IMG/VR virus record: IMGVR_UViG_3300010376_000085
Coordinates: 1 to 36,181 of that record
Direction: 5' to 3' (one strand)
Length of the DNA stretch: 36,181 nt
From: a virus
Lineage: Duplodnaviria; Caudoviricetes
Position numbers and translations under genes: made by a program. The notes beneath the pieces are model-generated. The model was given only the letters and a program-made list of their open reading frames with translations. It made no database searches and was not told the DNA's origin. This document shows positions 1,666 to 33,668 of this stretch, piece after piece (positions within the stretch are counted from its first letter, which is position 1; each line of letters opens with the position of its first letter).

Positions 1666-2127
1666 TCAAGCATCCTCCCTCAAGACTGGCATCCGGCGAT
1701 AAGGTGCCGTGCAGCCTTCATCCCACGGAAACCGCCCCTGCGGATCAGGAATTATCACTTGCATAATTTCGTAATCGTCGCCCCAGATATTAGAGGCTTG
1801 GACTGCGTAGTCCGTGCGGGCGGTCTTACCAGCTTTGAGGATATGGACGCCGAACTTGCCGCCCAGCGATACAGTTTCGCCGTCGCGCAGATTCATTCCC
1901 GACAATTTATTGAGCAGCACCATAGCATTGATCTGATTGTTGATCCCGATGACTAGCAACTCCGGGCGATCCTTCAAGGCGTTGCCAATCGTGTAAGCGA
2001 AGGGAATGAAATCCGGCTCATCCTTGCTCTGGAATACGCCAATCACGCTCCGGCCATGCTTCTGAATATTCTGCAAGACTGACCGTTGCAGCCTGCGCAT
2101 CGCGGCTTCTATTTCTTTCTTACGCAT
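1666..2127 (-). CDS. DUF4262-like protein
   Basis: Motifs PFAYTIGN..PELLVIG and QVIIPDPQGRFPWD. Overlaps the upstream ORF. Confidence 0.75.
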   Translation of the reverse strand: MRKKEIEAAMRRLQRSVLQNIQKHGRSVIGVFQSKDEPDFIPFAYTIGNALKDRPELLVIGINNQINAMVLLNKLSGMNLRDGETVSLGGKFGVHILKAGKTARTDYAVQASNIWGDDYEIMQVIIPDPQGRFPWDEGCTAPYRRMPVLREDA

Positions 2128-2410
2128 CGCGGCCTCGCTTCGCCAGTGGATTACACTCGATGCAAAGCGTCACCAGATCGGCTCCGCACTCAAAGCAGCG
2201 AATGCGACCGGGAAGCGGAAGCTCGATGGTCGCAAAAAGCTCACGCATCTGTTTGGCTGTGACGCTGGTAGAGGCTCCGCTACCCATGAAGTGCAGCACT
2301 ATGGAATCGTCAGCGATTGGTTCCTTGCGCAGCACAGCGTCAGCCTGCACCATTGCCCACCATAGGCCAAGCGATGCAAAGGCATCGGCGCGAGGATCAT
2401 CTACGCTCAT
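2120..2410 (-). CDS. Hypothetical protein with C-terminal CxxC..CxxC Zn ribbon
   Basis: CFEC..CIEC. Start MSVDDP chosen from overlap with the upstream gene; the ORF extends to 2443. Confidence 0.55.
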   Translation of the reverse strand: MSVDDPRADAFASLGLWWAMVQADAVLRKEPIADDSIVLHFMGSGASTSVTAKQMRELFATIELPLPGRIRCFECGADLVTLCIECNPLAKRGRDA

Positions 2411-2573
2411 GCTTGGTCCGCGCGTCCTTTTGTTTTTTCTCATCGATCAGATTGTAAGCCTGATCGAAATTCATCACGCGCCCCACCGTTTTGCCATCAA
2501 GCGTGATATAGACGGCATCCGCACCGCTCACTTGCTCGATGGTATAGCCCCGGTATGTTTCTTTGCGCGTCAT
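2397..2573 (-). CDS. Small hypothetical protein (58 aa, MTRKETYRGYTI)
   Basis: SD GAGGA before the ATG at 2573. First gene of an overlapping three-gene operon. Confidence 0.65.
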   Translation of the reverse strand: MTRKETYRGYTIEQVSGADAVYITLDGKTVGRVMNFDQAYNLIDEKKQKDARTKHERR

Positions 2574-2584
2574 CTGATCCTCAA

Positions 2585-2697
2585 TTAAAGCGCTGGCGGG
2601 ACCATTACAGCTATCACGCAACAGAAGCGTATCGATCCCGCCAGCTTGCAACGCGCGCAGGCTAGCCCAAGGATGGGGGGCAGCGCGCGCCGCAATA
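2585..2697 (-). ncRNA. Candidate sRNA-2 or structured leader with two hairpins
   Basis: Promoter TTGGCC-N17-TACATT (2731-2703). Stem 2646-2658/2683-2695 encloses CCCCCCAUCCUU. Stem 2592-2645 has loop UCUGUUGCGUGAU and is followed by GCUUUAAUU. Confidence 0.6.
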
Positions 2698-2704
2698 GGT
2701 TGAA

Positions 2705-2721
2705 TGTACTCGAAACGTACA
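2705..2721. promoter_or_regulatory. Operator TGTAC-N7-GTACA
   Basis: TGTACTCGAAACGTACA, perfect match, overlapping -10 TACATT. Confidence 0.7.
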
Positions 2722-2737
2722 GGCTGGCCAAGCCCGG

Positions 2738-2980
2738 CTAACCCCTTGGTTTCTTTGGCACCAGATCGGCCAGATCGATGCCCAGAACCTTGGCGATATC
2801 GGCAAGGCGGCCCATCGTAATCCGATTTTCGCCGCTCTCATACTTCTGAATCTGTTGTAGCGATACGCCAAGCGCTTGGGCCAGTTTGCGCTGGGTTATG
2901 CGCGGCTTGGTCGCCAAACGCGCTTGGCGAATACGCTCTGCCGTCGCCACATCGATGGCATGGGGCCATTTTTTGTTCAC
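2738..2980 (-). CDS. XRE-family HTH regulator (PraR-like)
   Basis: IDVATAERIRQAR..TQRKLAQALGVSLQQIQKYESGENRI. GTG start 5 nt after TATTAT, probably leaderless. Confidence 0.85.
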   Translation of the reverse strand: MNKKWPHAIDVATAERIRQARLATKPRITQRKLAQALGVSLQQIQKYESGENRITMGRLADIAKVLGIDLADLVPKKPRG

Positions 2981-3071
2981 TGGGCATAATATGCACACTA
3001 GGGAACAAATAACAAAAATTAGCCGCCAGCCTTTCGGCCAGCGGCGTTTGTGGCTTACCTGTAAAGGCAGG

Positions 3072-4463
3072 CTATAGCTCTGCGCTTGCGATCCAACCGC
3101 CGTCAATTAAATAACTCAAACCGAGAGTAAAATTGCCTGCATTGGTATTCACCTGTCCAGTGAACCCGCCCGCACTGTTAGGTGTTAAAGACATTCCAGT
3201 GCCCGCTACCCATGCAGAACTAGTGGGATAGTAAAAATTCCAGACACCGTTATTGCCTGCATTGGTGCCGCGATACGCGACCATTCCCGGCGTGGCTCGC
3301 ATTGGTGGAGAAAATTGTGTAAGCACTCGCGCAGCGGCGGTTGTATAAGCCGCCACGTTGCCAACTGTTGAACCAGCCGCCCCATCACCTGGAACGATCC
3401 CGAGTGGATAACTTGTCTGAAAGTATCGCTGACACAGCAAAAGCTCTTGGCCAAATTGCCGCCGCTCGAATGGCGTTGCCAGTGGCACGGCTGGCGTTGC
3501 GCCGGGCGGGGCAAGCTCTAGCTGAATATCTCCAATGTACATATTCGCGCCGTTGGTCGCCAAAATGCCGCCGCCAATCGGCCCATTAAACAGATTGCCG
3601 GTTATCCAAGCGTTGGGCGTTTGCACCCCGCCCGAACCGATGTTGAAACGAACCACAAGCGCGGCTGTGTTATCTCCCGAAATGGCATGAGCAGTGTCGC
3701 CTGGAATAGTGAAAATAACTCTTTGCGGTGTGCCCGCCGTGGCGGAAAACGATAAATTATAAGTCCAGCTATTTGTGACATTCACCAAGCTCACGTAATA
3801 GGTCGCAGTAATATCCGCCTGAAACAAAAACGATAACGAAAGCGATTGCGCAGAGGCGTTGCCATACGCCAAGTCAGGGACATTAAGCCCCTCTATAAGC
3901 TGATCCACTGCAAAATAATCGGATGAAAGCGTGGCATACGCCGAAAGCGATGTGATTTTGAGAAGGTGCGAGGAACCGCCAAGCGTGGCGAACCTATAAT
4001 CACCGCTTACGCCTTGAACGGAAAATTTATTTCCCAGGCTCAACATGCAACGCCAGCGGTCAACGCAGTATTGACCGCCTGCTGTGGTTGTTAGCGCCGC
4101 GCCAGCGTTGCGCTGGTCAATCCTGAAATCGCCATTTATAAGCCGGTTGCGGCCTACACCCGCACCATACCCACCAATCGTTGCTGGCCCCGTCACGGTC
4201 AAGCTGCTGACATTCGCTGGCTGGCCATAACTCAGTGCGTCGCCCAGCGTCGTGGCCGCGCCCAATCCCGTCAGCTTGAAACCGCCCATCGGGATATTAT
4301 TGGTCGGCGTCGATTGTCCATCCTTACAAATGCAATTCGACAAACCTGCCGCAAGATCGGTATTTAGCTGATTAACAACCGTGCTCGAAATCACTGTGCC
4401 GGTTGTGAACGGCAAGCCCGTCCCAGTAATGACGAATTGACCGGAGCCATTGAATGCACTCAT
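3072..4463 (-). CDS. Tail fibre / receptor-binding protein
   Basis: N-terminal attachment-like DLAAGLSNCICKDGQST, plus RNRLINGDFRIDQR and ATPFERR..ELLLCQRYF motifs of phage fibres. Last gene of the virion operon. Confidence 0.8.
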   Translation of the reverse strand: MSAFNGSGQFVITGTGLPFTTGTVISSTVVNQLNTDLAAGLSNCICKDGQSTPTNNIPMGGFKLTGLGAATTLGDALSYGQPANVSSLTVTGPATIGGYGAGVGRNRLINGDFRIDQRNAGAALTTTAGGQYCVDRWRCMLSLGNKFSVQGVSGDYRFATLGGSSHLLKITSLSAYATLSSDYFAVDQLIEGLNVPDLAYGNASAQSLSLSFLFQADITATYYVSLVNVTNSWTYNLSFSATAGTPQRVIFTIPGDTAHAISGDNTAALVVRFNIGSGGVQTPNAWITGNLFNGPIGGGILATNGANMYIGDIQLELAPPGATPAVPLATPFERRQFGQELLLCQRYFQTSYPLGIVPGDGAAGSTVGNVAAYTTAAARVLTQFSPPMRATPGMVAYRGTNAGNNGVWNFYYPTSSAWVAGTGMSLTPNSAGGFTGQVNTNAGNFTLGLSYLIDGGWIASAEL

Positions 4464-4472
4464 GGAGAATCC

Positions 4473-6596
4473 TTATTGGCCGCCGAATGCACTTTGACCG
4501 GAGAGAATTGCAGCTAGCGCCGCTGGCGGAATCGATTGGCGAACATTGACGCCGCGCTGGCCTTCGCGGCGCATGGCATTCTGAATCGCATCAGCAGCGT
4601 TATCGGGATTTTGCAACAGTCCGGCGAGTTGTGTCGCGCCCGCTCGATCCAACGCATTGCCGATATAACCAGCCGCTTGACCAATAATACCACCGCCTGG
4701 AAGCGCACTGAGAGAATGCCGCGCCATGAGATTTGCAAGATCGGCTGCTGTTCCTGGGCCGCCACCAGCGACGGCCATTTTAACGAAATTTGGAGCTTCC
4801 ATGCGCTGTGACGCTGTTCGCACTGCATCTAAGCGAGCCTGAATATCCGGCGCGATCAGATCGCCATATTTGCCGGTAGAATTGCTCTCGATAATCTGAT
4901 TGATCGCTGCGCGCGTCGAAATTGGATTTTGACCGCTCAGATCGATTGCGCCGCCTGTTACTTTATCGGCCAAATCATTGCGGATATTGCGCAGCGCTTC
5001 GATGCTGTTTACATCCGCCGAATGCTCTCGAAAAGCATCAAGATAATCGCCCCACATTCCGCCGCTGGCATGATTTAAAATAGAATCCATCATACCAACG
5101 GCACCAGTGGACGCCGCGCCCGCCGATTTAATTGCTGATCCTTGCTCGCTTAACGGTTGTCCAGCCCGCGCACTCAAAGCCTGCGTAATTGTCCTACGGG
5201 CCTCACCGATTGTTTCTGCGCCTGCTGTGCTAGTTTGATCCGCAGTACGGTTAAGCAGATCAGCCAATCTACTCACGCCCGCATTGACGCCGCGCGGCCC
5301 TGCCATTTCTTGGGCGGCCAAATCGCGAAGCGGCTGGACTCCAGTCGTACCAAATAATTCTGCGCGATCCGCAGCGGGACTCTCCAAGCCAACTTGACCA
5401 ATCTGCTGGCCAACGCGATTGGCGGCTGCTGTCGCGGGATCAGTCATCGTAAATCCCGGTCCCGCAACGCCGGGCGTATTAACATTTTGTTGCGTCCGCG
5501 CCGCTTCCGTCGCTGCTTGCTCCTGAGCGATTTGGGCCTGCCGCGCAATTGGATCGGCAGGATAATGCGCAGCGCTCAAATCTTCCCAGCCGCCAAAGCC
5601 AGCGCTTGGTTCTAAGCCACCTTGATTTGCTAAAGAAAAAGCGGCTGCGCGCATTGGATCGGTAGCCGTCGCACGCGCCTGTTGGGCAGCGCGGAACGCC
5701 GCATCATCATAAGGATTCACAATATCGCGCATCGCACCATATAACTGGCTATTCTGCTGCGACTTAAAACCAGCCCATTGCGGCGATGCGCTGGGGTGCA
5801 TCTGATTAGCGCGTTCCAACTGTATGATACCGGGATCTAAGGTAGCTTGGCCTGCCGACAAATCGACGCCCGGCACGCCGCTATCGGAATTGCGCAGATC
5901 GGAAACCACTTGCTGCGGCGTGCTGGTAATGCGCGAAGCATCAAGCAGCGCATTCTCGGCCCGATTGGCTGGAAGTAGATCGGCCAATCGCGATGCTGCC
6001 GCCGTCGCTGGGCGCAACAATTGCGGACTTCCGCCCAGTAGCGCAGCAGCAAGCCGCGCAAACGGCTCACCCGATGTGCCCGCCGTCGCTTGGCCTGCGC
6101 TTTCACTGGCTACGGCTGGAAGCAATACATTCCGTGCGCGCGCTGCTAGTCCAGCTTCCCCACCTAATGCCGCAGGCGCAAACTCGCCTATCGTTTCGGC
6201 ATACTTGCCCGGCAAAGTTTGTGGGGTATGAAAACCGGGGCCGTACATCGAAAAAGCTTGATTCAATGCTTCGGCAGAAAGCGGGCTTTTGGGCGTTTGA
6301 ATATTCTGGCCAGTAATCTTATTGGCTAGCCAATCCATGCCGCCAGTGGCCCAATCTTCGACCGTACCGGGCAATCCAATTGTGCCAGTTATTCCTTTTA
6401 CTACGCCACTAGGCAAAGATTTTGCGATATCCTCGACATAACCAACACGCGCGCCGCCACCTTGCTGCTTAGCCGCAGCAATTGCTGCATCAGGATCGAA
6501 ACCCTTTTTCTTTAAGTCATCGGGCGAAATCATCGGCGCAGGCGCGGCCTGCGTTTGCTGTGCCGCTGCTATCGCCGCATCGGGATCGAATGCCAT
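4473..6596 (-). CDS. Large DNA-ejection (internal virion) protein
   Basis: 707 aa, Ala/Gly-rich, with FDPDAAIAAA twice at the N-terminus. Position typical of podovirus ejection genes. Confidence 0.65.
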   Translation of the reverse strand: MAFDPDAAIAAAQQTQAAPAPMISPDDLKKKGFDPDAAIAAAKQQGGGARVGYVEDIAKSLPSGVVKGITGTIGLPGTVEDWATGGMDWLANKITGQNIQTPKSPLSAEALNQAFSMYGPGFHTPQTLPGKYAETIGEFAPAALGGEAGLAARARNVLLPAVASESAGQATAGTSGEPFARLAAALLGGSPQLLRPATAAASRLADLLPANRAENALLDASRITSTPQQVVSDLRNSDSGVPGVDLSAGQATLDPGIIQLERANQMHPSASPQWAGFKSQQNSQLYGAMRDIVNPYDDAAFRAAQQARATATDPMRAAAFSLANQGGLEPSAGFGGWEDLSAAHYPADPIARQAQIAQEQAATEAARTQQNVNTPGVAGPGFTMTDPATAAANRVGQQIGQVGLESPAADRAELFGTTGVQPLRDLAAQEMAGPRGVNAGVSRLADLLNRTADQTSTAGAETIGEARRTITQALSARAGQPLSEQGSAIKSAGAASTGAVGMMDSILNHASGGMWGDYLDAFREHSADVNSIEALRNIRNDLADKVTGGAIDLSGQNPISTRAAINQIIESNSTGKYGDLIAPDIQARLDAVRTASQRMEAPNFVKMAVAGGGPGTAADLANLMARHSLSALPGGGIIGQAAGYIGNALDRAGATQLAGLLQNPDNAADAIQNAMRREGQRGVNVRQSIPPAALAAILSGQSAFGGQ

Positions 6597-8359
6597 TAAG
6601 GTATCCCATAAAGCTGCTTAATCGAAGCCAAACGTGGATCGCGCGCATTCTTAGGGTCTTGCGCCCACTTCATTGCATCGTCGCGACTCTGGCCGCCGAT
6701 ATTGCCCTTGCCGGTTGCTTCTTCTGCCGCTTGCCCTTGCGCCAATAGCTGCTTGCCTAATGGCGAGAGTCGATCCGGCAGATCGGTTAGACCTTGTGTC
6801 ACAGATTGATAAGTGCGGTTGCTGTTGGCCATCTGACTACCCAGCAAACCCTTCGCGCCATTGATCGCGCCCATGATCGCCTCGGGCGAGTTAGAGCGTG
6901 AAAGATTGGTTGCTGCTGTATTGCGCTCACCTTCACCGCCACCGCCCGGTACAATGCCCTTAACCAATTCCTGGGCTGCGATATCGCGCACGGCATTGTA
7001 GGTTGTTGGCGCAGGCTGTCCTAGCCAAGATTCAACAGCATTCTTTGCACTGTTAAGTATGGGCGACCCGGTATTATTCAGATTCGCCGCTAGTGTGGCC
7101 AGCATATCAAGATGATTGGCAACATTATCCATTGACATGAATTGCTTACCCTGAGCGCTTGTTGCCCATGCCGCCCGCGCTTTATCTTTGGTTGCAAACG
7201 CAGTCTGATCGTAATTTGGATAAGCCTGATCCACCATATTCATAAACTTGATGCTGGCATCAGTGACGCGATTAGCGCCGGGCTGGCGATAAGTGCCAAC
7301 GGCTTCAATCTGCTTGGCCAAACCCGGATTTGTTTGTGCCACCTTATCCAAAAATGCTTGGCCAGCTAGTCCGCCTGTACCTTCAAGCGGCGCATAAGGA
7401 TTGGCCGCACGCTGAATCGCTTCGGTTGCACGATCATGCTGCACTTCTTCATTGACTCGCGCCTGAGCGATCCGCGCATTGGCTATTTGGTCTGCTGTTT
7501 GTGGCAGCTTATTTTCGTAATCAGCAAGGTCTTTCCTGGTCTGCTCATCAAGATTAGCGGTTAAGATCGCTTTGTCATGCTCTGCCTGCGACATTGGCAG
7601 AGTAAGATTGTAAAGCTGATTTTGCCGCTGCATAAGATTATTGAATACGGCTTGCTGATAGGCTTGTGTTTGCGGCCCGCCACGCACTCCCATTATCTGC
7701 GCCATCTGATTGGTAATTTGATTTTGTTGATCCTGAATCCCCATGCCGGGTTGCATGCCAGCTTGTGGCAGCGCTAGCGCTCCAATCTGGCCGGGCATCT
7801 GAGTCAGTGGAATATGCGGCGGCATCGCTGGCCCAGTCGGCGGCGGCTGCGGTCCAGCCGGACCTGCTATGGGAGCGCTAGCAGGCGACGGTAACGCGGG
7901 ACCAGCCGCTCCGCCGCCTGCCGTAGCGCCTGCGCCTGCCACTGGCGACGGCGCAGAAGGCGCAACAGGACCAAGTTGCTGGCCGGAAGGCGGGGCCGTT
8001 CCTTGCCCGCCTTGGCCCGCCAATATCTTGGCGATCTGCTGCGTTCCCGCAATATCTTGCTGGCCCATCGCGGCCATCTGTTGTCGTGCGCGCGCTTCAT
8101 CGCGAGCCGCGTCAAAGCCTTGCAAACCTTTGGCCAACACACTGGCCCACGAAATCGGCGCGGCTGCGCCCCAGCCGCCTCTTTGTATATCGATGGGCGA
8201 AGCTGCTTGTTGCCGCAATTGATCGGCAAGCGCTTGGTTGCGCTGAATCTGCGCCTGTTGCTGCTGCCATGTTAAGGTACTGGGATCGGGTGGCGCGAAC
8301 ATATTTACAACGGAGTTGTAAGCGTCACTGACTCCTTGCTGTATTCCGGGCCAACTCAT
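6596..8359 (-). CDS. DNA-ejection (internal virion) protein
   Basis: 587 aa, Q/P/G-rich, overlapping the next gene. Confidence 0.65.
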   Translation of the reverse strand: MSWPGIQQGVSDAYNSVVNMFAPPDPSTLTWQQQQAQIQRNQALADQLRQQAASPIDIQRGGWGAAAPISWASVLAKGLQGFDAARDEARARQQMAAMGQQDIAGTQQIAKILAGQGGQGTAPPSGQQLGPVAPSAPSPVAGAGATAGGGAAGPALPSPASAPIAGPAGPQPPPTGPAMPPHIPLTQMPGQIGALALPQAGMQPGMGIQDQQNQITNQMAQIMGVRGGPQTQAYQQAVFNNLMQRQNQLYNLTLPMSQAEHDKAILTANLDEQTRKDLADYENKLPQTADQIANARIAQARVNEEVQHDRATEAIQRAANPYAPLEGTGGLAGQAFLDKVAQTNPGLAKQIEAVGTYRQPGANRVTDASIKFMNMVDQAYPNYDQTAFATKDKARAAWATSAQGKQFMSMDNVANHLDMLATLAANLNNTGSPILNSAKNAVESWLGQPAPTTYNAVRDIAAQELVKGIVPGGGGEGERNTAATNLSRSNSPEAIMGAINGAKGLLGSQMANSNRTYQSVTQGLTDLPDRLSPLGKQLLAQGQAAEEATGKGNIGGQSRDDAMKWAQDPKNARDPRLASIKQLYGIP

Positions 8360-8371
8360 GCCTGTACTCCG

Positions 8372-9280
8372 TTATGGGAAACTAAACATGCCCATCGCTG
8401 CACCACCCAAGCTAGCAAGTCCCTGCATCCCAGCATTGTAAGCGCCCATCTGTTGACCATAGAGATTTTGCGCAAACGTGCCGGTATCCTGCGCAGCTTG
8501 ATACATCGGCGCAGCCGCAACATTCGCGCCAGTGTATTGCTGAAATTGCGGCGCTTGAATCTGCGATCCGCTCATCAGCGCGGAGATTTCATTCAGCGGC
8601 TGATTATAAAGTCCCAATTGTTGCGAAAGCGCTTGCTGGGCTGCGGTATTGCCGAACTGACCCGATTGCAGCGCTTGATTAAAGCCTTGTGCATTAGCCG
8701 ATAGATCAAGGCCAACACCCTGCTGCGCGGCACCCAACATCAAATTGTTGACATTGATACCCTGCGCACGCTGGGCGTTGTTCCAAGCTTCTGTTCCCGG
8801 AGCAATACCTTGATTGGCCAATTGCTGATTCAACGCGGCTTGCTGCTGTTGAATCTGCGGCTGCATCAAAGCCATCTGGGCTTGATAGCCAGTCTGCCCG
8901 GCATTGACTGGGATCGGCGCTACACCGGACGTATTTAAACCCGTCTGAATACCCGGTCCCTGATATTGAAATGGCGTGCCCAAAATCTTTTGCGCTTGGC
9001 CGATGCCTTGTTGACCAAGATTTGCCAAATTCATTTGCACATTCTGTTGTGCGTTTAATGCGGCCTCTGCCTGCGGATTCAAATTCTGCGAAATCGTCGG
9101 CTGCCACGTACCGCCCGGCCCTTGCGAATAACTGACCGTTTGCGATCCGTAAGGGCCATAAATATTAGGATTAGAACCTACTTCGGTCGCGAATGCGGCT
9201 TGCTGATTGGCTGCGCCTTGCGCTTGTGCCGCTGCTGTATAATTAGGTGTAGGCGGGGGCGCGGGTTGACTTTTTCCCAT
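8372..9280 (-). CDS. DNA-ejection / pilot protein
   Basis: MGKSQPAPPPTPNY N-terminus, PNIYGPYGSQT and LANQGIAPGTEAW. Q/A/G-rich; follows the GNAT gene. Confidence 0.7.
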   Translation of the reverse strand: MGKSQPAPPPTPNYTAAAQAQGAANQQAAFATEVGSNPNIYGPYGSQTVSYSQGPGGTWQPTISQNLNPQAEAALNAQQNVQMNLANLGQQGIGQAQKILGTPFQYQGPGIQTGLNTSGVAPIPVNAGQTGYQAQMALMQPQIQQQQAALNQQLANQGIAPGTEAWNNAQRAQGINVNNLMLGAAQQGVGLDLSANAQGFNQALQSGQFGNTAAQQALSQQLGLYNQPLNEISALMSGSQIQAPQFQQYTGANVAAAPMYQAAQDTGTFAQNLYGQQMGAYNAGMQGLASLGGAAMGMFSFP

Positions 9281-9692
9281 AGCGTTCCTTTAAGAAACGG
9301 CAGTTGGATTTTTCGAGGGTGTAGATCAGCAGATCGCCACCGCTGGTCGCGGCGGCTTTGATATTGCCTTCTTGACTAAAACCCATCTTGCGGCACAACC
9401 GGATGCTGCGCGCATTGTTGGAGTCAATTGTGCAAATGATTTTGTGGACGCCGCACACGCAAAACGGATAATCGAAGATCGCGGCAAGAAATGCGGGCGT
9501 CATCCGCCCCTTCACAGCAATCAATGCGACGATGCTGCGCCCGTTGAATTGCTCGTAATTCACACCCGCGACAAATTTGTTGTTGTGCAACAAGCCCAGC
9601 GATACCGTGCCGGGCACATAGCAAGCGCCATCGATCTGCGATGCAACCCAAATGCCTGCACGCGGATTGTTAGAAACTATATCCCAGCCCAT
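9243..9692 (-). CDS. GNAT-family acetyltransferase of the tail module
   Basis: N..SIRLCRKMGFSQEG GNAT motif, between nozzle and ejection genes. Confidence 0.8.
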   Translation of the reverse strand: MGWDIVSNNPRAGIWVASQIDGACYVPGTVSLGLLHNNKFVAGVNYEQFNGRSIVALIAVKGRMTPAFLAAIFDYPFCVCGVHKIICTIDSNNARSIRLCRKMGFSQEGNIKAAATSGGDLLIYTLEKSNCRFLKERYGKKSTRAPAYT

Positions 9693-11275
9693 CCGGCTTG
9701 GAATACGATATCGGTTGACGCCCAACTGATCTGAATACCTTGGCTGGCGCTCTCGAAATCAATCCCGGCGCAGTAGCCCACACCGGCAACGCCTTGCCAG
9801 TCATTGCTGAGGTTCATGTTCTGACCCCAAAGCGCGGCGTCCCAAAGCCCGCTATCCCAGTAACCAAAACCAGTTGGAGAAAAACTGATCGGCTGATCGT
9901 ATTCATTAATGCTGAAATCAATCGCCAAGCCGATGCGAATTGACGGGTTGCCATTGGTCAAAATGTTTGGGCGCGCGCGGGTAAAATATTTCTCGACGCC
10001 GCGCATTTCAAAATAATTGAAAGCCTGAACTACATCGGTATCGATATTCGCGCCATCGTCGGCGTAGCTGCCAATATCCCAAGCATGATAAATGATGCCG
10101 TTGCCGCCGAAATAAGGTTCATCGTTAAACAGTGCAAAGACGTTGGCGGGCCAGCCCTGAAAATTGCACCATGATCCGGTAATGGTATTCATCACAAATT
10201 GCTGTTGCACGCCTACACCCATTGGAATGTTGACGATCAACGCGGCCTGCTTGGGATAATAGAAAATTTGCCAGCCAAAATTCTGCCGGTACTGGCGGAT
10301 CACAGTATTAATCGCCGCCTGTATTTTGAAGGAAATCGCCACGCGGGTATCAATGCGCGACGATTGCAGCCCCTGAGCCAACGGGATAATGCCGTCCAAG
10401 GAGAGAATCAGTCCGTCGCCGCCGAATTTAATCAACAGATTGCGATTGCCGACCGGAGCGCCGATCTGCCAAACCCCGATTTCCGCCCATGTCGCAAGGC
10501 TGGCCGGATCAGTGCCTTGATAAACAACAATCTCACCTTTGCTAGTATAAAAAACCAGATTGTCATTCATGCCGTAACCGGCATCGACGGTCCAAGCCAG
10601 CATATCCACCAGAGTCCCGCCCAGCATGGCGACGCTGGACAGATCAAGCATCTGCAACTGGCCGCCAATCGATTGCGTCGGCAGATACCACGCCCGCAAG
10701 CTATTGGCTTCGATAAACCACACCCGATTTTTGAACAGATAAACGTGAGTTAGCGCAGTCGGGCCTGCGGCTGGGCCGCCGGTTATCGCAATCGGCGTGC
10801 TGGTTGCGCTGATATGGCTCCAATTGATGCCATCGTACAAAAGCGGATTGTCAAAGCCATTGACCGCATAAAGATAGTTTCCGCCCGGCGTCGAAACATT
10901 GGTGTACTCAAAACGGGCATTGGTTAAACCACTGACAACAGCCGCGCCGACTGGGCCGCTATTGGACACATCGAAGATGCTGCGGCTTCCGGCATCGATG
11001 GCGAACATTTTATTCGCCGCCGCCCCGGCATAAACCATCAGCGACTCGATCTGGCCGCTCATGCCGGTTGCCCAGCGCGTGCTGCCGCCGCGCAGATCGC
11101 AACTCGCCCCGCCCGGAAACATATTGACCATGCGCACGGCATCGGTCGGGGCCATGTTTGCCCACGCATCGCGCGCATTCCAGCCGCCCACTGGCGCGGG
11201 CAGGGATGCCACATGCGCTTGCGCGCGCTGGATCGGCGGCGGAGTACCGCGCAGGAAACTACTGGGGCGTGCCAT
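9677..11275 (-). CDS. Tail nozzle / DNA stabilisation protein (P22 gp10-like role)
   Basis: LPAPVGGWNARD N-terminus, beta-rich, WDSGLWD near the C-terminus. Follows the adaptor. Confidence 0.75.
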   Translation of the reverse strand: MARPSSFLRGTPPPIQRAQAHVASLPAPVGGWNARDAWANMAPTDAVRMVNMFPGGASCDLRGGSTRWATGMSGQIESLMVYAGAAANKMFAIDAGSRSIFDVSNSGPVGAAVVSGLTNARFEYTNVSTPGGNYLYAVNGFDNPLLYDGINWSHISATSTPIAITGGPAAGPTALTHVYLFKNRVWFIEANSLRAWYLPTQSIGGQLQMLDLSSVAMLGGTLVDMLAWTVDAGYGMNDNLVFYTSKGEIVVYQGTDPASLATWAEIGVWQIGAPVGNRNLLIKFGGDGLILSLDGIIPLAQGLQSSRIDTRVAISFKIQAAINTVIRQYRQNFGWQIFYYPKQAALIVNIPMGVGVQQQFVMNTITGSWCNFQGWPANVFALFNDEPYFGGNGIIYHAWDIGSYADDGANIDTDVVQAFNYFEMRGVEKYFTRARPNILTNGNPSIRIGLAIDFSINEYDQPISFSPTGFGYWDSGLWDAALWGQNMNLSNDWQGVAGVGYCAGIDFESASQGIQISWASTDIVFQAGWAGI

Positions 11276-23982: not shown

Positions 23983-24786
23983 ATGATCCATCTGCACTTG
24001 GCGTTGGAACGCGCGCCGCCTGAAATGCGGCCCTCTTTGATGAATGCGGAAGGATTCGATTTTGGCCCTGTTCCGCTGAAAAAGCTTACAGGCGAAAAAG
24101 AAGGCTTTTATGAACTGCCGGAATTTACTTCGGTAGAACTGGAATTGTTTGTAACCGGCCTGCTGCAATTGCCAGCGCCGGTATGCTGGTTTGAATATCG
24201 CATGGAAACCCTTAGCGCCATTTTGGTGCTTGAAGATGAAAAGGATTCATTCATCGTGCATCATTATGATGAAGCTAGAGGTTGGGCCACTGATCCCGTC
24301 TTCATTGGCTTCAAGCGTAAAGACAAACCATTTGCACTCTATACTTTTGGCCGTGAAGCCGCATTCTTTTCACGCGAAACGATTGAACTGCTGTATGGCT
24401 CCGATGTTGGGCTGGTGATTTATTTTTGCTTGATGCTGCTATCCAAAACCACTGAAATTGAAAAAGTGCGCGCGCCAAAATTCACCAATGCGGCGCGGAT
24501 CAAGAAAGGCAAGCCGCCGCTAAAAGCCCACACCATCGTCCATATCGTGCCGTACAAATACATTTCCGCATCCCAGCGCGAAGCGGGCCGCAGCCATGCC
24601 TCGCCGCGCTTGCATTGGCGCAGATCGCACTTGCGCATCTACGATCATCGCACACCCGGATCAACCTATGTCGAAAGCAAAGGCTGGTGCGTGCCCATCG
24701 CGCGCTGCTTGGTGGGATCGGCTGCGGAAGGCGAGGTCAGCCATGAATATTTCGTGGACGGCCCGCTCAGTCTAACCAATCGCTAA
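23983..24786 (+). CDS. Hypothetical phage protein with SPRLHWRRSHLR motif
   Basis: 267 aa with LPAPVCWFE, NAARIKKGKPPL and HASPRLHWRRSHLR. Confidence 0.75.
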   Translation: MIHLHLALERAPPEMRPSLMNAEGFDFGPVPLKKLTGEKEGFYELPEFTSVELELFVTGLLQLPAPVCWFEYRMETLSAILVLEDEKDSFIVHHYDEARGWATDPVFIGFKRKDKPFALYTFGREAAFFSRETIELLYGSDVGLVIYFCLMLLSKTTEIEKVRAPKFTNAARIKKGKPPLKAHTIVHIVPYKYISASQREAGRSHASPRLHWRRSHLRIYDHRTPGSTYVESKGWCVPIARCLVGSAAEGEVSHEYFVDGPLSLTNR

Positions 24787-24987: not shown

Positions 24988-26163
24988 ATGTCCATTGCGC
25001 ATCAGATCGTCGCCTACATTTTTACTTTACTTGCTTCTTTTAGACCCGCTGCCTTCTTCAAGCCCAAGGAAATCTTGGTGCTTGATTTCACAAAAAAGAA
25101 ACCGGCCCGGAAGGAAAAGCCGGACGTAAGCCAATCCTTCTATTTCCGTGAAATCATTCTGGACTCGCTGGAACATTATTTTCCGCACTTGCGCAACATG
25201 AAGCGCGCGGATCACGAAGCCTATGCACTTTACAGCAAACTGGGCGCGACTTTGTTGCCCGATACCGCATTGATCGATAGCCGGGAAATCTCACCCTGGT
25301 TCCGGCAAAAGCTGCCCACGTTCGGGGCAATCGCGCTCGCAATCAACAGCAGAGCAAAAGAACATGATGAAAAAGAGCAAGTATTTAGTCCGCGCTTTGT
25401 CTGCTTCACGAAATTCCATAAGCAACATCGCCCAGTCAATATCCAAGGCTCGAATGTGACCGGGACGCTCTATCGCATAACCCTATGCTGGGATGATCCC
25501 AGCAAGAAAGCCCATCCGTGGATTTCCGAAGTGGGAATGCTGCTGTGTAGTGACGGGAACGTGGTTCCGCTCAAATACCGCAGCGACAAATATCAGCGCA
25601 TTAAACACAAACGCGGCAGCGACCGTGAAAGCCATATCCATCATGCGGCATGGGATTGGCCGCCGATCTGGTACGAAAGCGCAAAGCTACAAAACCAAAC
25701 CATCGAACAGCACCTGGTCCGCCTGTTCACGTTGACCGCCAACGCCTTCGAGGCCGCGCAAGCAGGCATCACCATGGTCAGCGTCAAAAAAGACAAACTG
25801 ATTGCGAAATTTGGACTCGATCCGACGCGCACAGCCTATTTCTTCAAAGATCGCGATGTGGTGATAAGCGATAACGGCAAGAAGAAAAAAATCTTTCACA
25901 TCGTGCGCACGCATCTGCGCCAGGGTAAGCAAGTCAAAAGCCACTTTCGCGGCTTGCGCTCATTCCTATGGAACGGCTACCAAATTAACATCACAGTCCC
26001 AGTGCGCGAGCATTTCATGCTGGGCGAATTTGATGTTGACGCGCACGATATGGATGCCGCCGAAAAAGAAAATCTCCAGGGACTCGATAGCGGCCAGATA
26101 GCCAACTTTCTGGAAAAAGAAATCATCAAAGAATTGGCGGCTAAGAAAATCACGCTTCACTGA
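24988..26163 (+). CDS. Hypothetical phage protein with FHIVRTHLR..VKSHFRG motif
   Basis: 391 aa. SD GGAGG before the ATG at 24988. Confidence 0.8.
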   Translation: MSIAHQIVAYIFTLLASFRPAAFFKPKEILVLDFTKKKPARKEKPDVSQSFYFREIILDSLEHYFPHLRNMKRADHEAYALYSKLGATLLPDTALIDSREISPWFRQKLPTFGAIALAINSRAKEHDEKEQVFSPRFVCFTKFHKQHRPVNIQGSNVTGTLYRITLCWDDPSKKAHPWISEVGMLLCSDGNVVPLKYRSDKYQRIKHKRGSDRESHIHHAAWDWPPIWYESAKLQNQTIEQHLVRLFTLTANAFEAAQAGITMVSVKKDKLIAKFGLDPTRTAYFFKDRDVVISDNGKKKKIFHIVRTHLRQGKQVKSHFRGLRSFLWNGYQINITVPVREHFMLGEFDVDAHDMDAAEKENLQGLDSGQIANFLEKEIIKELAAKKITLH

Positions 26164-26887: not shown

Positions 26888-27271
26888 CTAACCCTTCTCG
26901 CCAATCCAGGAAATAACGATTGGTCTACCGTCATCATCAGCACCAAGTGCAACTCTTTCGCCAAATTTCTTGGGTTTGAGCTTACTTGCTAGCCATTTTC
27001 GCGCGTCAATTCTGATGGTGCGGCTCTTAGGATCAATCGACTCGTCATCCGCAATCGCTTGAATATCCTCAGCCATTGCTTCGGCACGCTCGCTTGTCGC
27101 GCGCGCGTATTGTTCGACGAAGGCTTCATGCCGATACAGCCACTTCCACACCGTCGTCATATTCGGCATTCCCTCCGGCTTGCAGACCGTCCTCAGCGAT
27201 TGTCCATCGCTGATCCGCTCCAAAACCTTGGCCGCTAATTCTTCCGAATAAATTTCTGGCCTTCCGGTCAT
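26888..27271 (-). CDS. terS: Terminase small subunit (Sf6 gp1-like)
   Basis: GRPEIYSEEL..ISDGQSLRTVC..MP..TVWKWL..QYARA..RIDARKWLASKLKPKKFG. Confidence 0.93.
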   Translation of the reverse strand: MTGRPEIYSEELAAKVLERISDGQSLRTVCKPEGMPNMTTVWKWLYRHEAFVEQYARATSERAEAMAEDIQAIADDESIDPKSRTIRIDARKWLASKLKPKKFGERVALGADDDGRPIVISWIGEKG

Positions 27272-27312: not shown

Positions 27313-27876
27313 TGGCAAGGCAATTTCGCCTTGGTATCACGCAACAGGAGTCTGACTTAATGCGCACCAAACTTAAAACAGCCAAACTTGGCGTCATCGA
27401 ATGTACAGCCCCCACCATGAAAGCGGCCAAGGCTAGCTTGGCAACGTCGCTGGAATGGCTGGCTAGCAATGAAGGCAATCTCAAAACCGAATGCCGCTTT
27501 GGCCTTGTCGGCATTCTCGCGCCAATCGCTTCTGGCTGGCTGTATCGCATTATCGATCAAGACCACATCAACCAATCCAAAGATGTTTCTTATTGCTGCA
27601 TGATGGGCCGCGTTGATTATCGTGACGCGCTTTCCGAAATGCGCAACGCCATGTGCCAACGCGCTTGGAACCAATCCGTTGACGATGACGCGCATATTGC
27701 AGCATCAAACTGCCTGGAAAGCACCAAGCGCGAATTGGCTAGCCTATTTCGTCACTATCGCGCCAACTATCCGCACCAGCATTCCGTTCCAGCCTAGTCG
27801 CGCGCTTTGCGCCTTGCAGCGCTTAATCGCGCTGCAATGGCAAGGCGCTTTGCCTTGGTATCACGCAACAGGAGTC
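27313..27876 (+). repeat. About 40-nt leader repeat: hairpin plus GGTATCACGCAACAGGAGTC (27313-27352 and 27838-27876)
   Basis: TGGCAAGGC-loop-GCCTTGGTATCACGCAACAGGAGTC with identical stem and different loop. Shorter copies at 28511-28525 and 29025-29034. Confidence 0.9.
27360..27797 (+). CDS. Hypothetical protein (array gene 1)
   Basis: ATG at 27360 after the repeat's AGGAG. 145 aa. Confidence 0.75.
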   Translation: MRTKLKTAKLGVIECTAPTMKAAKASLATSLEWLASNEGNLKTECRFGLVGILAPIASGWLYRIIDQDHINQSKDVSYCCMMGRVDYRDALSEMRNAMCQRAWNQSVDDDAHIAASNCLESTKRELASLFRHYRANYPHQHSVPA

Positions 27877-27881
27877 CTCAA

Positions 27882-28331
27882 ATGCTATTCCCTAAGATCA
27901 TTCTGCGCGATTTTTCCAAGCCTTTGCGCGAAAGGCATCCCCCGCATGTTGGCCCGTACCGTTGGGAACCTTCGACTCTGCCTAGCACTGGGCGCGGTTT
28001 CTATCTGCACAGCAACTATCTTGCCTGTGGCGATTCAACTTTCGATCTGCGCCTTGACTATGCGGTTTCCCACTGCCCAAGCTATTTCAGCTATCGCAAA
28101 CCCCGCGCTTTTACTGGTGCTGGCGATTCCGAATACACGCCGATTATCGCGCGCTTACCGCATGGGCATGGCTATCTAGCAGGCTGGACTATGGGCCATG
28201 GCATGCTAAGCGCCATCGACAGGGACATTTACCAGGACATAGCCGATGCTGCGCGCGCGGCCTATGACATGGCAGAGCGTAACGCGGAATCAGATCGCGA
28301 TTCCGAATTTCAAGAAGAATTTGAAGCCTAA
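27882..28331 (+). CDS. Hypothetical protein (array gene 2)
   Basis: ATG at 27882 after AGGAG. RLPHGHGYLAGWTMG..AARAAYDMAE. Confidence 0.8.
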   Translation: MLFPKIILRDFSKPLRERHPPHVGPYRWEPSTLPSTGRGFYLHSNYLACGDSTFDLRLDYAVSHCPSYFSYRKPRAFTGAGDSEYTPIIARLPHGHGYLAGWTMGHGMLSAIDRDIYQDIADAARAAYDMAERNAESDRDSEFQEEFEA

Positions 28332-28339
28332 CACGATCT

Positions 28340-28380
28340 GCGGCCTAGGGCGGGATGGTAGCCATCCCGCCCTAGGCCGC
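28340..28380. repeat. Perfect 19-bp inverted repeat
   Basis: GCGGCCTAGGGCGGGATGG-TAG-CCATCCCGCCCTAGGCCGC. Confidence 0.9.
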
Positions 28381-28529
28381 GCGCTTCGACCATCTGCCGG
28401 AATACGATAACGGAAATCTACTCCAGCACTTGAGCGGCTGTTGATCCGCCGCACATTGTGCGCTCTTTACACGCCCGTTCCTAAATGCTAGGAACGGGCG
28501 TTTTCTTTACCACGCAACAGGAGTCACTC

Positions 28530-28967
28530 GTGAATCTCTTTAAACAGGAATCCTATCACCCCAAGCGCAACGCCCAGCTAAACCTTATCGGGCGGACTCA
28601 CTATGTCGATGACAATACCTTGCGCTTTCATCATGCGCGCGTTCTGAGCGCGACTGCCACCGACAACGGTCTATTGTTCGCCTTGGTGGAATCCGTCGCG
28701 CTCGATTACGACAATACGAGGCGCGGCTATCGCTATGTCATCTTTGATTTGTTCGGCAAAGTCATATCGCGCTGCGATCTGGAATCCGCTTTCAAATCAC
28801 GCGCCACGGCGACTAAGGCCATGTGGCGAGAATTAAACGCGCTCGATGCCCACGCCATCACGCGCGCTGGGATCGAACAATCGCGCCGCAACCATGAATC
28901 CGAACTGGCGGACCTTTCCGCCATTGTGGATTCGCTTCCAGTGAAAGCTCCAGTAAAAGCGGCCTAA
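28530..28967 (+). CDS. Hypothetical protein (array gene 3)
   Basis: GTG at 28530 after AGGAG. RTHYVDDNTLRFHHARV; ends in AA. Confidence 0.8.
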   Translation: MNLFKQESYHPKRNAQLNLIGRTHYVDDNTLRFHHARVLSATATDNGLLFALVESVALDYDNTRRGYRYVIFDLFGKVISRCDLESAFKSRATATKAMWRELNALDAHAITRAGIEQSRRNHESELADLSAIVDSLPVKAPVKAA

Positions 28968-29048
28968 CGCGGCTTTAGGCGCGAGCGGGAAACCCTCGCG
29001 CCTATGGGCGCGGCTAGCGCGTCACACGCAACAGAAAGGTTCAATCTC

Positions 29049-29195
29049 ATGTTGACTATCGCGGGCGGGATCATTCTCGCCTTTATCATCGGCTGGGTCA
29101 TGCTCGCCATTGTTGGCGGCAGCTTCCAAGCTGGCCCCGGTTGCGGAATAACCGCGCTGATTGCCTGCGGTCTTTTCCTGCTCTGGATATTGTGA
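29049..29195 (+). CDS. Small two-TM membrane protein (array gene 4)
   Basis: Follows CACGCAACAGAAAGG. 48 aa with two hydrophobic stretches. Confidence 0.65.
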   Translation: MLTIAGGIILAFIIGWVMLAIVGGSFQAGPGCGITALIACGLFLLWIL

Positions 29196-29203
29196 GGCAC
29201 ACA

Positions 29204-29404
29204 ATGAACAAACTCAAAATTTGCTCTTACACCTGGGCGGGGATCATTCGCTTCTACGTCGCGCAACTACCTGGCGATGGTGGCAAAGACTGGGGTTATA
29301 CCGAAAATCGCGACCATGCTCTTAAGCTCTCGCCTTACTGGCAACGCCGCTTTAACGCGGATTGCCGCCGGATCGGTCAAGTCGCAAGAATTGAAACGCC
29401 ATGA
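29204..29404 (+). CDS. Small hypothetical protein (66 aa)
   Basis: SD GAGG. ATGA overlap with the next gene. Confidence 0.65.
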   Translation: MNKLKICSYTWAGIIRFYVAQLPGDGGKDWGYTENRDHALKLSPYWQRRFNADCRRIGQVARIETP

Positions 29405-29691
29405 AACCGGATATTCAAACCCTAAGCGACTTCGGCATCGTGCTCTACGGCCAACAATGGCAAACCCCGCTTGCCAACGCGCTGGGCATTTCCGATAGGC
29501 AAATGCGCAATTGGGTAGCAGGGGCGCAATCGATCAATCCTCGCATTTGGCGCAAGCTGCCGGAGATAGCAGCGGCACACGCGGCAGAGTATCGCCAAAA
29601 AGCCCGATTGGTTGAAAATTTCGGCACGCGCTATGCCAAAGAAATGGCCAAGCCGTATTTCCAAAAATGCCTGGAGAGCGCGCAGAGCTAG
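29401..29691 (+). CDS. HTH DNA-binding protein
   Basis: LYGQQWQTPLANALGISDRQMRNWVAG helix-turn-helix. Confidence 0.8.
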   Translation: MKPDIQTLSDFGIVLYGQQWQTPLANALGISDRQMRNWVAGAQSINPRIWRKLPEIAAAHAAEYRQKARLVENFGTRYAKEMAKPYFQKCLESAQS

Positions 29692-29736
29692 CGCATAGCA
29701 ACTTTTATAACCACGTTTGCAAGGGCCGCGCAATAT

Positions 29737-30294
29737 CTAGCGCGGCCCTTTTCTTTTCAGCCGCTTGCTGGATCGCTCGATAGCATCAGCCAGCGCGTCC
29801 AAACTTTCGCACAATCTAGCCGATACTCGCGTATCACGCGGCAGTCTCGCCCGGACAATCGCTTCGGCTGGCGTGTAGCCAAACCAGCACACCGACCGCG
29901 CGATAATCTTATCCCGTTCTCCCAACCTCATCTCAATTGCCACCAAATGGCGTACCGCGTTCGCCTGCGCCTCTCCATAAGGCATCCGGTGTACCGTACC
30001 CGTACAATCAAACGCCTCTGTACTGTCACGGCTAGGGCTCTGAGAGGCATCATAAAGTTGCGCATAAAAGTTCCCAGCATCGAGTCTGGCGAGCGCGGTA
30101 TGGCTGTCCCGCGCGCCCAGCCGTTCCGCTTGGAATGCAACTTCAAGCTGCGAGCGCTTGCGCCATGCCAGCGGCGCACCAGCGACCTTGGAAGTCGCGC
30201 GATCCTGCGCATGCAGCGGCGTGACAATCGCTGGGCCCTGTATCTCATCGTCGCTTGTTGGCGTTTGCGTGCTGTTACCGGCGCTAATAGTCAT
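29737..30294 (-). CDS. Putative late regulator (Q-position, DUF6456-like)
   Basis: Last gene of the cro operon before the packaging genes. C-terminal LG..DKIIARSVC..RLCESLDALA. Confidence 0.6.
   Translation of the reverse strand: MTISAGNSTQTPTSDDEIQGPAIVTPLHAQDRATSKVAGAPLAWRKRSQLEVAFQAERLGARDSHTALARLDAGNFYAQLYDASQSPSRDSTEAFDCTGTVHRMPYGEAQANAVRHLVAIEMRLGERDKIIARSVCWFGYTPAEAIVRARLPRDTRVSARLCESLDALADAIERSSKRLKRKGPR
29980..30008 (+). promoter_or_regulatory. Intragenic operator plus putative antisense promoter
   Basis: TGTACCGTACCCGTACA (29990-30006) and AGGCAT-N17-TACAAT. Confidence 0.45.
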
Positions 30295-31120
30295 CTGGAT
30301 TTTTCCCCTCGACCAAACCGGCCTTGACGCGCACCAGCCACACATCGTAGCGCGCGCGCCGCTCCAAATCGTCATTGTCGAAATTCAGATCGTCCACTCG
30401 CCAATGCGGTTTCCACCAGCGCTTAGGCTGAAACTCCCAGCCGATTGGCCGTGTCTCTGGCACTGCACCAAAGCGCCCATGGCCTCGCGTTGCGCCCAAT
30501 CCGGCATCGCTCTCGCTTGCGCTCGCGCGATGCGCTGGCACAGACTCAGAAAAAAAAGAAAATCCTTTTCTAGGATTTTCTTTTTTTTCTGAGTCTGGAT
30601 ATGGATTATGGAAGGCATTCCCATGCGGGGGCATTGCGTTGGCATCGCCCATGCCATTGGATTTATTCGCTTTGGCTTGCTCGAAGTCATGCACGTTTCC
30701 AGACTCGTCGAAGCGTTTAATGGTTGCTTTTTTTGCATCCTGTGAAGTTCCATGCGTTGGCATTGCCGTGGCATCATCTAAGCCATTGCTTTTGCTCCAT
30801 CTGGCCTGGGCGTTGTCGCGCTGATGTTGTCGAAATCGCTCGGATTTGGCGCGAGTTTCCTGCAAGCGCTTTTGTATCCACAGCCCGTTATCCACAGAGT
30901 GCAGTGCAGCCAATGGTTCCCGGTAATATCTGCGCCATGTGCGCAGATCGCAGCGCGTCACCTTGCAGAGAAATTTGTCATCGTCGGGCAGATCGCAGTC
31001 CGGCCTGCGCCATGCCGTAAACAGCAACCGCACATAAGCGCCAAGCTGGGCCGAACCCAAATGCTCGGTGTCAGCCAGAAAGGCGTCGGTCCAGATCGGC
31101 AGCATGGGGAATTTAGCCAT
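30284..31120 (-). CDS. DUF1376/YdaU-family replication initiator
   Basis: PMLPIWTDAFLADTEHL..GAYVRLL..W..LPDDD..QKRL. Confidence 0.85.
   Translation of the reverse strand: MAKFPMLPIWTDAFLADTEHLGSAQLGAYVRLLFTAWRRPDCDLPDDDKFLCKVTRCDLRTWRRYYREPLAALHSVDNGLWIQKRLQETRAKSERFRQHQRDNAQARWSKSNGLDDATAMPTHGTSQDAKKATIKRFDESGNVHDFEQAKANKSNGMGDANAMPPHGNAFHNPYPDSEKKENPRKGFSFFSESVPAHRASASESDAGLGATRGHGRFGAVPETRPIGWEFQPKRWWKPHWRVDDLNFDNDDLERRARYDVWLVRVKAGLVEGKNPDDY
30541..30793. other. Putative replication origin inside the initiator gene
   Basis: Perfect 26-bp A/T-tract inverted repeat (30541-30597), and two roughly 44-bp units (30621, 30750) containing GGCAT at 11-bp period. Confidence 0.6.
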
Positions 31121-31493
31121 CCCAATCATCCCAGCTATTCGCGCGCTTGGCGGCCTTAAACAAAGCCCCGCGCTGCTTGGGCGAAAGACTGCCCGTCCGC
31201 TCCCACTGCTCTTGCAGGCTTTCGATAAAGGAGCGAAACCCGCCTTCCCGGCAACTGCACAGCACGGTATCGAAGGCGCTGTTAATTTCGTCGCTCACGG
31301 TCGGGGCCGGGCGCTTGGCGGCGTCGGCGTTCTCAATCGCGTTAAAAATTTCGATCCAATGGACCTTGGCCCGCGTCAAGATCGCGTTGGCCATGCGCAT
31401 GGCGTTAAGGGCTTCGCCGTCCAGATCGGATGCCGTCATGGCCAAGAGTTTGCGCAGCCTGAGCAGATCGCCGGGACCTAATTTTTCTAGCAT
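31113..31493 (-). CDS. Hypothetical protein (DUF2786-like N-terminus)
   Basis: LRKLLAMTASDLDGEALNA..ANAIL and SLSPKQ. Overlaps neighbours. Confidence 0.7.
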   Translation of the reverse strand: MLEKLGPGDLLRLRKLLAMTASDLDGEALNAMRMANAILTRAKVHWIEIFNAIENADAAKRPAPTVSDEINSAFDTVLCSCREGGFRSFIESLQEQWERTGSLSPKQRGALFKAAKRANSWDDWDG

Positions 31494-31882
31494 GGCTCCA
31501 GCCTTTGCTGCTGGTAGCCACGCTCGACGCCGCTCTGTTCCAACACCGCATACACGGTCGCGGGATGAAGGTAATAAATCTTGGCCAATGTGCGCACACT
31601 CACCCCAGCCCGATATGCGCCGCAGATCGCGCGATTGCGCCGGTTAAGCCGATAGACCGGCATACCCTGGCTGGACCAATGCGGCCTTGAGCGCACTTCT
31701 GGGGGACGGGTCGGAGGCTTGACGCCAACTTGGGCGACAAGCTGGGCGATAGCTTCGGCGTCCCGGCCCGTCAGCTTGGCCAAATTGGCGATGCTCGCGC
31801 CTTCCGCGAAGCAGTCAAGCAGCGCTTGAGTGCGAACAATCTGCTGCTCTAGCTCATGCTGTTTTGGCTCATCAATAACCAT
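31487..31882 (-). CDS. HTH protein (Mor-like C-terminus)
   Basis: RNRAICGAYRAGVSVRTLAKIYYLHPATVYAVL. Confidence 0.7.
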   Translation of the reverse strand: MVIDEPKQHELEQQIVRTQALLDCFAEGASIANLAKLTGRDAEAIAQLVAQVGVKPPTRPPEVRSRPHWSSQGMPVYRLNRRNRAICGAYRAGVSVRTLAKIYYLHPATVYAVLEQSGVERGYQQQRLEPC

Positions 31883-32072
31883 CGCTGCCCACGCCCACGC
31901 TGGTTAACTTGGCAATCATCCTGTCGATCACCTTGATCTGCGCGCTAATCCCCATGGCCTTCTTGGTATAGCCGATATCAATGCAGCGCTTGCGCTTGGC
32001 GACCAGATCGCGCCGCTGTTGAAGCCATTGCTGGCGAATGTGATTCTGATTGTTGTAAAGATTGTCAGCCAT
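31872..32072 (-). CDS. Small hypothetical protein (66 aa)
   Basis: SD GGAGGA. Overlaps both neighbours. Confidence 0.55.
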   Translation of the reverse strand: MADNLYNNQNHIRQQWLQQRRDLVAKRKRCIDIGYTKKAMGISAQIKVIDRMIAKLTSVGVGSDGY

Positions 32073-33462: not shown

Positions 33463-33668
33463 CCCCTGCGTTTGGCTGCTTGTCCTGGCTCCATGAAGTG
33501 CCACCAATCGATGCGGGTTAATTTTTCCAGGCGTAACGCGGTCTTGTAGCTCGCCCCAGTGATACCCCGCCTGATCCGGCTGATTTGTGGACGGGAACGC
33601 TTCACGGCATTAGCCACTTCGCCATCTAGTTTGCCGTTTTTCGTCATCCATTGTTGCAGCGCAGTCAT
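33459..33668 (-). CDS. cro: Cro-like HTH repressor
   Basis: LDGEVANAVKRSRPQISRIRRG..TALRLEKLT. ATG 6 nt after -10 TACAGT (leaderless); divergent from cI. Confidence 0.85.
   Translation of the reverse strand: MTALQQWMTKNGKLDGEVANAVKRSRPQISRIRRGITGASYKTALRLEKLTRIDWWHFMEPGQAAKRRG

Follow-up and report, generated by a model that had tools for sequence, protein, structure and literature searches.

Antisense control inside temperate phage circuits is known from the P4 CI RNA, which causes termination, and from the P22 Sar RNA, each with one neighbouring target, and in Alphaproteobacteria AbcR1 and alpha-r14 carry generic anti-SD loops that pair with many host mRNAs. The C4 RNA of phages P1 and P7 has three stems, is released through RNase P cleavage, acts through two loops on one adjacent operon and maintains lysogeny (PMC5320573, PMC12197685). 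Start-associated sequences (SAS/ESAS) were described in 2011 in Cluster K mycobacteriophages (PMC3203893), and tags of this type also occur in Microbacterium Cluster EF phages (PMC7302621). Their role is called unknown by Freeman et al. 2024 (PMC11373665) and again in a 2025 survey, the accessible text of which does not mention antisense, reverse or hairpin (PMC12699233).

The window analyzed here is the whole 36,181-nt stretch of IMG/VR record IMGVR_UViG_3300010376_000085, from an uncultured Caudoviricetes phage, and is most of a temperate tailed phage. Related capsids among named phages are ~50% identical. The phage DNA is present in soil metagenome runs, and no RNA dataset with phage sequence was found among the sequencing runs listed. 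A preliminary description had proposed that the minus strand encodes a trans-acting RNA directed at several leaders of a distant accessory gene array. The genes that frame these two loci are as follows.

3-1121: integrase gene
1666-2573, minus strand: three-gene operon behind the proposed RNA (2397-2573, 2120-2443 and the DUF4262 gene 1666-2127)
2738-2986, minus strand: XRE-type HTH gene directly upstream of the RNA promoter (PF01381, E 4e-14)
3072-23370: tail and head genes
26888-27271: small terminase gene
29737-33096: replication genes
33459-33668, minus strand: Cro-like gene (weak matches, E 0.008)
33769-34158, plus strand: CI-like repressor gene (weak PHROG repressor matches, E 4e-4), with an exact operator on either side (33677 and 34186)

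The first gene of the operon (2397-2573) encodes a 58-aa orphan for which the search returned only its own sequence. Further strong hairpins lie between the integrase and DUF4262 genes (1440-1640), among them a terminator-like stem on the minus strand (1477-1510), with a near-operator at 1604. A perfect 26-bp AT-rich inverted repeat within a replication gene (30541-30597) is origin-like.

The array comprises six plus-strand genes (27360-29691) that point away from the small terminase gene. We computed tag counts, complementarity, predicted structure, pairing rank and operator distribution from the sequence. The tag CACGCAACAG occurs in five exact copies in the window, all on the plus strand (2615, 27338, 27862, 28511 and 29025), compared with a mean of 0.09 and a maximum of 2 in 100 dinucleotide shuffles, and its confinement to five places, earlier judged by eye, thus holds under exact counting. 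Four copies lie in array leaders and the fifth at the tip of a minus-strand hairpin. The array features are listed with the net pairing energy of each leader, ranked among 49 phage leaders.

27293-27309, either strand: palindrome TTCCTA-N5-TAGGAA before the array, with a second copy (28478-28494) inside a terminator-like hairpin
27335-27351, plus strand: tag 1, covering the SD of gene 27360-27797 (-14.0 kcal/mol, rank 1 of 49)
27859-27875, plus strand: tag 2, covering the SD of gene 27882-28331, PHROG 33651 (-13.4, rank 2)
28511-28524, plus strand: tag 3, over the SD of gene 28530-28967 (-13.1, rank 3)
29025-29036, plus strand: tag 4, immediately 5' to the SD of gene 29049-29195 (-12.2, rank 4)
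29721-29750, plus strand: terminator-like hairpin closing the array

The tagged leaders have 8-11 bases 5' of AGGAG in common, and inverted repeats precede all four tags. The palindrome TTCCTA-N5-TAGGAA is a candidate array promoter or operator. The array proteins have many environmental homologues, and their functions drew no informative match in PADLOC, NCBIfam, Pfam, Atlas or fold searches; the product of gene 28530-28967 has a confident structure model with no solved-structure match. Gene 29049-29195 encodes a small hydrophobic protein and heads 29204-29404 and the HTH-like 29401-29691. This HTH-like gene and the palindromes in the upstream regions of the array resemble the layout of self-repressed anti-defence operons; no family match was found.

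The minus-strand locus contains the following predicted elements.

2584-2591, minus strand: short U-rich tail after hairpin 2, a weak terminator candidate not called by the terminator scanner
2585-2697, minus strand: predicted ~110-nt two-hairpin RNA
2592-2645, minus strand: hairpin 2
2612-2628, minus strand: anti-tag segment at the tip of hairpin 2, with an openable 13-nt loop (2613-2625)
2646-2695, minus strand: hairpin 1, with a C-rich, mostly paired tip and no target found
2703-2708, minus strand: predicted -10 box TACATT, which by spacing places +1 at ~2697-2696
2705-2721, either strand: operator-like palindrome TGTAC-N7-GTACA, spanning the promoter spacer and the -10 box
2726-2731, minus strand: predicted -35 box TTGGCC, with a 17-nt spacer to the -10

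The two long hairpins originally described on the minus strand (2695-2646 and 2645-2592) were recovered: 2584-2697 has a folding energy of -65.3 kcal/mol (z -6.0), matched by none of 200 shuffles. The plus strand also folds well (-56.2, z -4.9), and the fold contains four G-U pairs on the minus strand and one on the plus. The loop of hairpin 2 had been drawn with 13 nt; the minimum-energy structure closes two extra pairs and keeps 8 nt in the loop, although all 13 nt can be freed for only 2.2 kcal/mol. A hairpin tip as good was found at only 22 of 18,046 sampled window positions (0.12%), and a looser tip test was passed by 4.5% of positions. We infer that hairpin 1 is a 5' stabilising stem. 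Its loop CCCCCCAUCCUU had been considered anti-SD-like, a role we rejected because the loop is mostly paired, costing 8.25 kcal/mol to open, and the window has no other copy of its complement AGGATGGGG.

The pairing lengths claimed for the loop were confirmed. The anti-tag segment matches the leaders of 27360 and 27882 over 16 nt with one G-U, SD included, and over 17 nt with a second G-U (2612-2628); it matches the 28530 leader over 13-14 nt and the 29049 leader over 12 nt of Watson-Crick pairs, against 13 and 12 nt reported before. The duplex covers the SD AGGAG in leaders 1-3 and only the first two bases of AAAGG in leader 4, and the U at 2625 is able to pair with the G of leaders 1-3 as well as with the A of leader 4. 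With accessibility counted, the tagged leaders take ranks 1-4 of 49 (-12.2 to -14.0 kcal/mol), compared with -6.8 kcal/mol net for the best untagged leader. Duplex score without accessibility places the untagged leaders of 33096 and 32379 above tags 3 and 4. In full cofolding the complex is favoured by only 1.4-4.3 kcal/mol, and the loop pairing appears in two of four leaders, being absent for 27882 and 29049.

The proposed RNA had been given the span 2585-2731, of which ~2585-2697 would remain. Bases 2698-2731 are likely promoter and operator DNA and not RNA, so the proposed RNA is shorter. The predicted +1 falls one or two bases before hairpin 1. The promoter has 8 of 12 consensus matches and is therefore unlisted by the scanner, which has a bar of 9/12. 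The palindrome TGTAC-N7-GTACA occurs in seven exact copies (1191, 2705, 24943, 26339, 29990, 33677 and 34186) and in none of 100 shuffles, and the same half-sites with spacers of 3-6 or 8-11 have no copies. At 33677, 7 bases ahead of the cro start, the palindrome spans the -10 box of TTGGCT-18-TACAGT, a layout like that of the predicted RNA promoter, and the copy at 24943 covers the -10 of TTTACC-17-TACATT before gene 24988; all three operator-covered promoters (2705, 24943 and 33677) were read from spacing. We infer that this palindrome is the operator of the phage repressor, the binding protein being a prediction, and a literature search found no paper on the motif. Since the operator lies over the -10 box, the RNA is predicted to be off in the lysogen and would be a ~110-nt lytic-phase product.

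The palindrome positions, including 1604 (the near-operator) and 23945, take in sites before the integrase gene and near the attachment region. Palindromes also precede two plus-strand late-region genes (23983-24786 and 24988-26163), and one copy lies inside gene 29737-30375.

We consider it somewhat probable that the ~110-nt RNA is a lytic product that base-pairs to the four tags and keeps ribosomes from loading. In a lysogen the CI-like protein would bind the palindrome and repress the RNA promoter; on infection or induction the operator would be freed, the promoter at 2731 would fire, and RNA running from 2697 to ~2585 would accumulate. The array would be transcribed from its own promoters as an immediate-early set until the RNA loop paired with the tag, extended over the SD and inhibited translation, thereby restricting array translation to a short pulse. 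Read-through past the weak U-tail could feed the 2573-1666 operon. A trans-acting, multi-target RNA, as the preliminary description had it, is the best reading of the tip placement, the ranks 1-4 of 49, the promoter-like element upstream and its right direction; such a multi-target antisense RNA is credible but unproven.

Like C4, the predicted RNA is a phage RNA with a loop complementary to the ribosome-binding region of the phage's own mRNA. Unlike C4, it has two hairpins, one active loop, four distant leaders and predicted lytic expression. C4 pairs through two loops, whereas loop 1 here is largely closed by pairing and lacks a complement in the rest of the window, and C4 targets an adjacent antirepressor operon, whereas the targets here lie beside terminase genes. 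No antirepressor family was found among the array targets in PHROG, Pfam or NCBIfam, the scan covering the first 79 of the 145 residues of the 27360-27797 product, and Rfam C4-type models had no match at E <= 1 anywhere in the window. The analogy drawn earlier to C4 and CI is misleading on timing, as the operator over the -10 box predicts an RNA that is off in the lysogen, while C4 maintains lysogeny. What the locus would have in common with P4 CI and P22 Sar is antisense control inside a temperate phage regulatory circuit. AbcR1 and alpha-r14 also direct loops at ribosome-binding regions, but here the loop is mostly private sequence 5' of the SD.

The closest parallel to the tags is SAS. In both, phage tags are asymmetric and lie over the SD a few bases before the starts of non-structural genes, with conservation reaching beyond the SD and with upstream inverted repeats, and in both one copy lies off gene starts, in a hairpin loop. 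The sequence and host group are unrelated, only AGGAG being common with the Cluster K consensus, and four clustered targets here compare with 11-19 scattered ones in SAS phages. The view that nothing like this had been described must be narrowed, since the tag class is the known SAS pattern; no antisense RNA is proposed in the SAS papers, an antisense partner was not found in print, and a search that took in few subscription journals returned no paper on an RNA antisense to SAS-type tags.

We scanned the right 33-36 kb of Cluster K genomes, plus the first 2.5 kb of SirPhilip. In Adephagia a long hairpin lies between genes 92 and 93 (58,660-58,720) and carries the single reverse SAS in its apical loop, in an interval in which late transcription appears to start according to the accessible text of Freeman et al. 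2024 (PMC11373665); the hairpin here has instead its own predicted, operator-covered promoter. In Cluster K1 the reverse SAS occupies a conserved hairpin loop, and the lower stem is paired in 99% of cells across 10 aligned phages, with double changes in 2 of 10 pairs, a statistic in which related sequences can beat shuffles without structure. Four K5-type phages place this loop on another stem, of 15-16 bp, at a second locus near the terminase genes and after tRNA-Trp. Pixie and TM4 have no reverse copy in the parts scanned. Co-variation of loop and tag had been suggested as a check, and the Cluster K analogue does not display it: in Hammy and Ekdilam the loop is changed (one base shorter) and the SAS is unchanged, and SirPhilip has lost the loop and kept 11 exact SAS. 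In general terms, the Cluster K loop resembles an anti-SD as well. Adephagia gene 39 (L285:6345-6743), itself SAS-tagged, is given an Hfq-like fold in a table of the same paper (PMC11373665), and it is possible that its product is an RNA chaperone for SAS pairing.

Relatives of the RNA itself were not found by BLASTN against 50,697 phage records or as an Rfam family match. An exact 16-mer scan of IMG/VR gave 38 loci, all single matches with no multi-copy leader, and 0 of the 38 lay at such a hairpin tip. No close relatives were found in IMG/VR via the integrase or repressor, 10 records with related capsids contained no comparable pair of tag and hairpin, and TGTAC-N7-GTACA was present in 0 of 27 array-related records. 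A variant contig from another soil run has no change in 2584-2885 among the differences listed, but is uninformative because neighbouring genes differ by <1% and 22 further differences lie outside the listing.

Arrays with homologous genes often bear repeated leader tags of their own. A tag/hairpin script that recovered both positive controls found a repeated leader tag in 22 of 50 IMG/VR records, many of these records being fragments and six ending 1-4 kb early, and several of the 22 tags being plain extended SDs. An anti-tag hairpin was found by the same script, which misses the bulged Hammy/Ekdilam loop, in 0 of the 22, so tags need no such RNA, and this weighs against generality. The script also gave one match each inside coding regions of Pixie and Ekdilam, and its bar is therefore not free of chance. 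It is possible, and we suggest it tentatively, that unrelated phages have repeatedly built translational regulons from tags and a hairpin RNA, with a private tag placed next to the SD in many early genes and a single hairpin RNA fired at it later in infection, wired here to the lysis-lysogeny repressor, and that the same design explains the Cluster K reverse SAS.

Long private leader tags in 4-6 copies, with no antisense hairpin found in the sequence scanned, occur in arrays of L164 (G013) (2557-4704), L158 (G008) (8354-10617) and L175 (4809-6933).

The 22 records with repeated tags, none with an antisense copy, would also fit a tag that is a DNA promoter element, the copy at 2612 then being a plus-strand promoter or protein site located in a hairpin by coincidence. 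Leaders 1 and 2 can be read as (G/A)TGGCA-16/17-TGG-TATCAC, the ~28 bases that they have in common include an inverted repeat in the would-be spacer, and Cluster K ESAS have promoters with inverted repeats (PMC11373665, accessible text). However, TAT is missing from leaders 3 and 4, transcription beginning 6-7 nt beyond TATCAC would remove part of the SD, no matching -35 is seen by eye at the 2612 copy, and the hairpin-tip placement is left unexplained. Candidate plus-strand promoters in the array were read only by eye; the scanner lists none. We regard this explanation as unlikely.

The RNA may instead pair with the tags at another time or with another sign, either made in the lysogen, where it would silence the array like C4, or acting as an activator that opens the leaders. 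The array itself has no TGTAC-N7-GTACA operator, so something else must silence it in the prophage, and a lysogenic source could be activation at the palindrome or read-through from the XRE-type HTH gene, whose end lies 7 bases short of the RNA promoter, no terminator being called in the gap. An activating role would accord with the 3.3-5.1 kcal/mol that opening the tag region of the leaders costs. Either variant is rather unlikely, however: as at the cro promoter, the operator sits across the -10 box, where it would repress, and in three leaders the SD itself lies within the duplex.

The hairpins lie between a promoter and the 2573-1666 operon, with a short U-run, 10 bases before the SD of gene 2573, as would suit a cis-acting leader or attenuator of that operon, and array leaders have evidently been copied between genes, so that the match might be a relic of a duplicated array leader. 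The sequences on either side of the 2612 copy, though, have nothing in common with the leaders, the tag comes after a hairpin in the leaders and not in its tip, and a relic has no need of 17 nt of complementarity in the tip; we find this origin improbable.

Still more improbable is that an RNA-binding protein, for example a phage HTH protein, recognises the tag, with the 2612 copy a decoy in a plus-strand loop. All five copies have the same genomic orientation, the plus-strand hairpin also presents part of the motif, and a protein acting on SAS has been speculated on (PMC11373665, accessible text), but the minus strand is the one indicated by the promoter and operator and favoured 4 to 1 by the G-U pairs, and no plus-strand promoter is listed at the 2612 locus. 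A chance match is scarcely believable: GC-rich 10-mers do reach 5-7 copies in the phage genome, but the 13-mer TATCACGCAACAG is expected 0.01 times per shuffled genome and the tip placement at 0.1-4.5% of positions.

If the lytic antisense reading holds, a switch of one RNA and many leaders would offer a testable role for SAS in a cultured system (Adephagia in M. smegmatis). The common operator would bring translational shut-off of accessory genes under the lysis-lysogeny circuit, a repressor-tied translational layer not found in the accessible text of phage sRNA reviews, and the predicted operator-gated promoter is what this locus adds to the picture of anti-tag hairpins. The compact pair of loop and tag could also be put to use where several genes are to be silenced together by simple means.

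Some array leaders elsewhere contain a different element directly before the SD, a hammerhead-ribozyme-like core (CTGATGA...CGAAA). Such cores are found in L288 as three near-identical copies (1000-1045, 2210-2250 and 3200-3245), in L161 (~9950-9990) and in L179 (~5845-5880).
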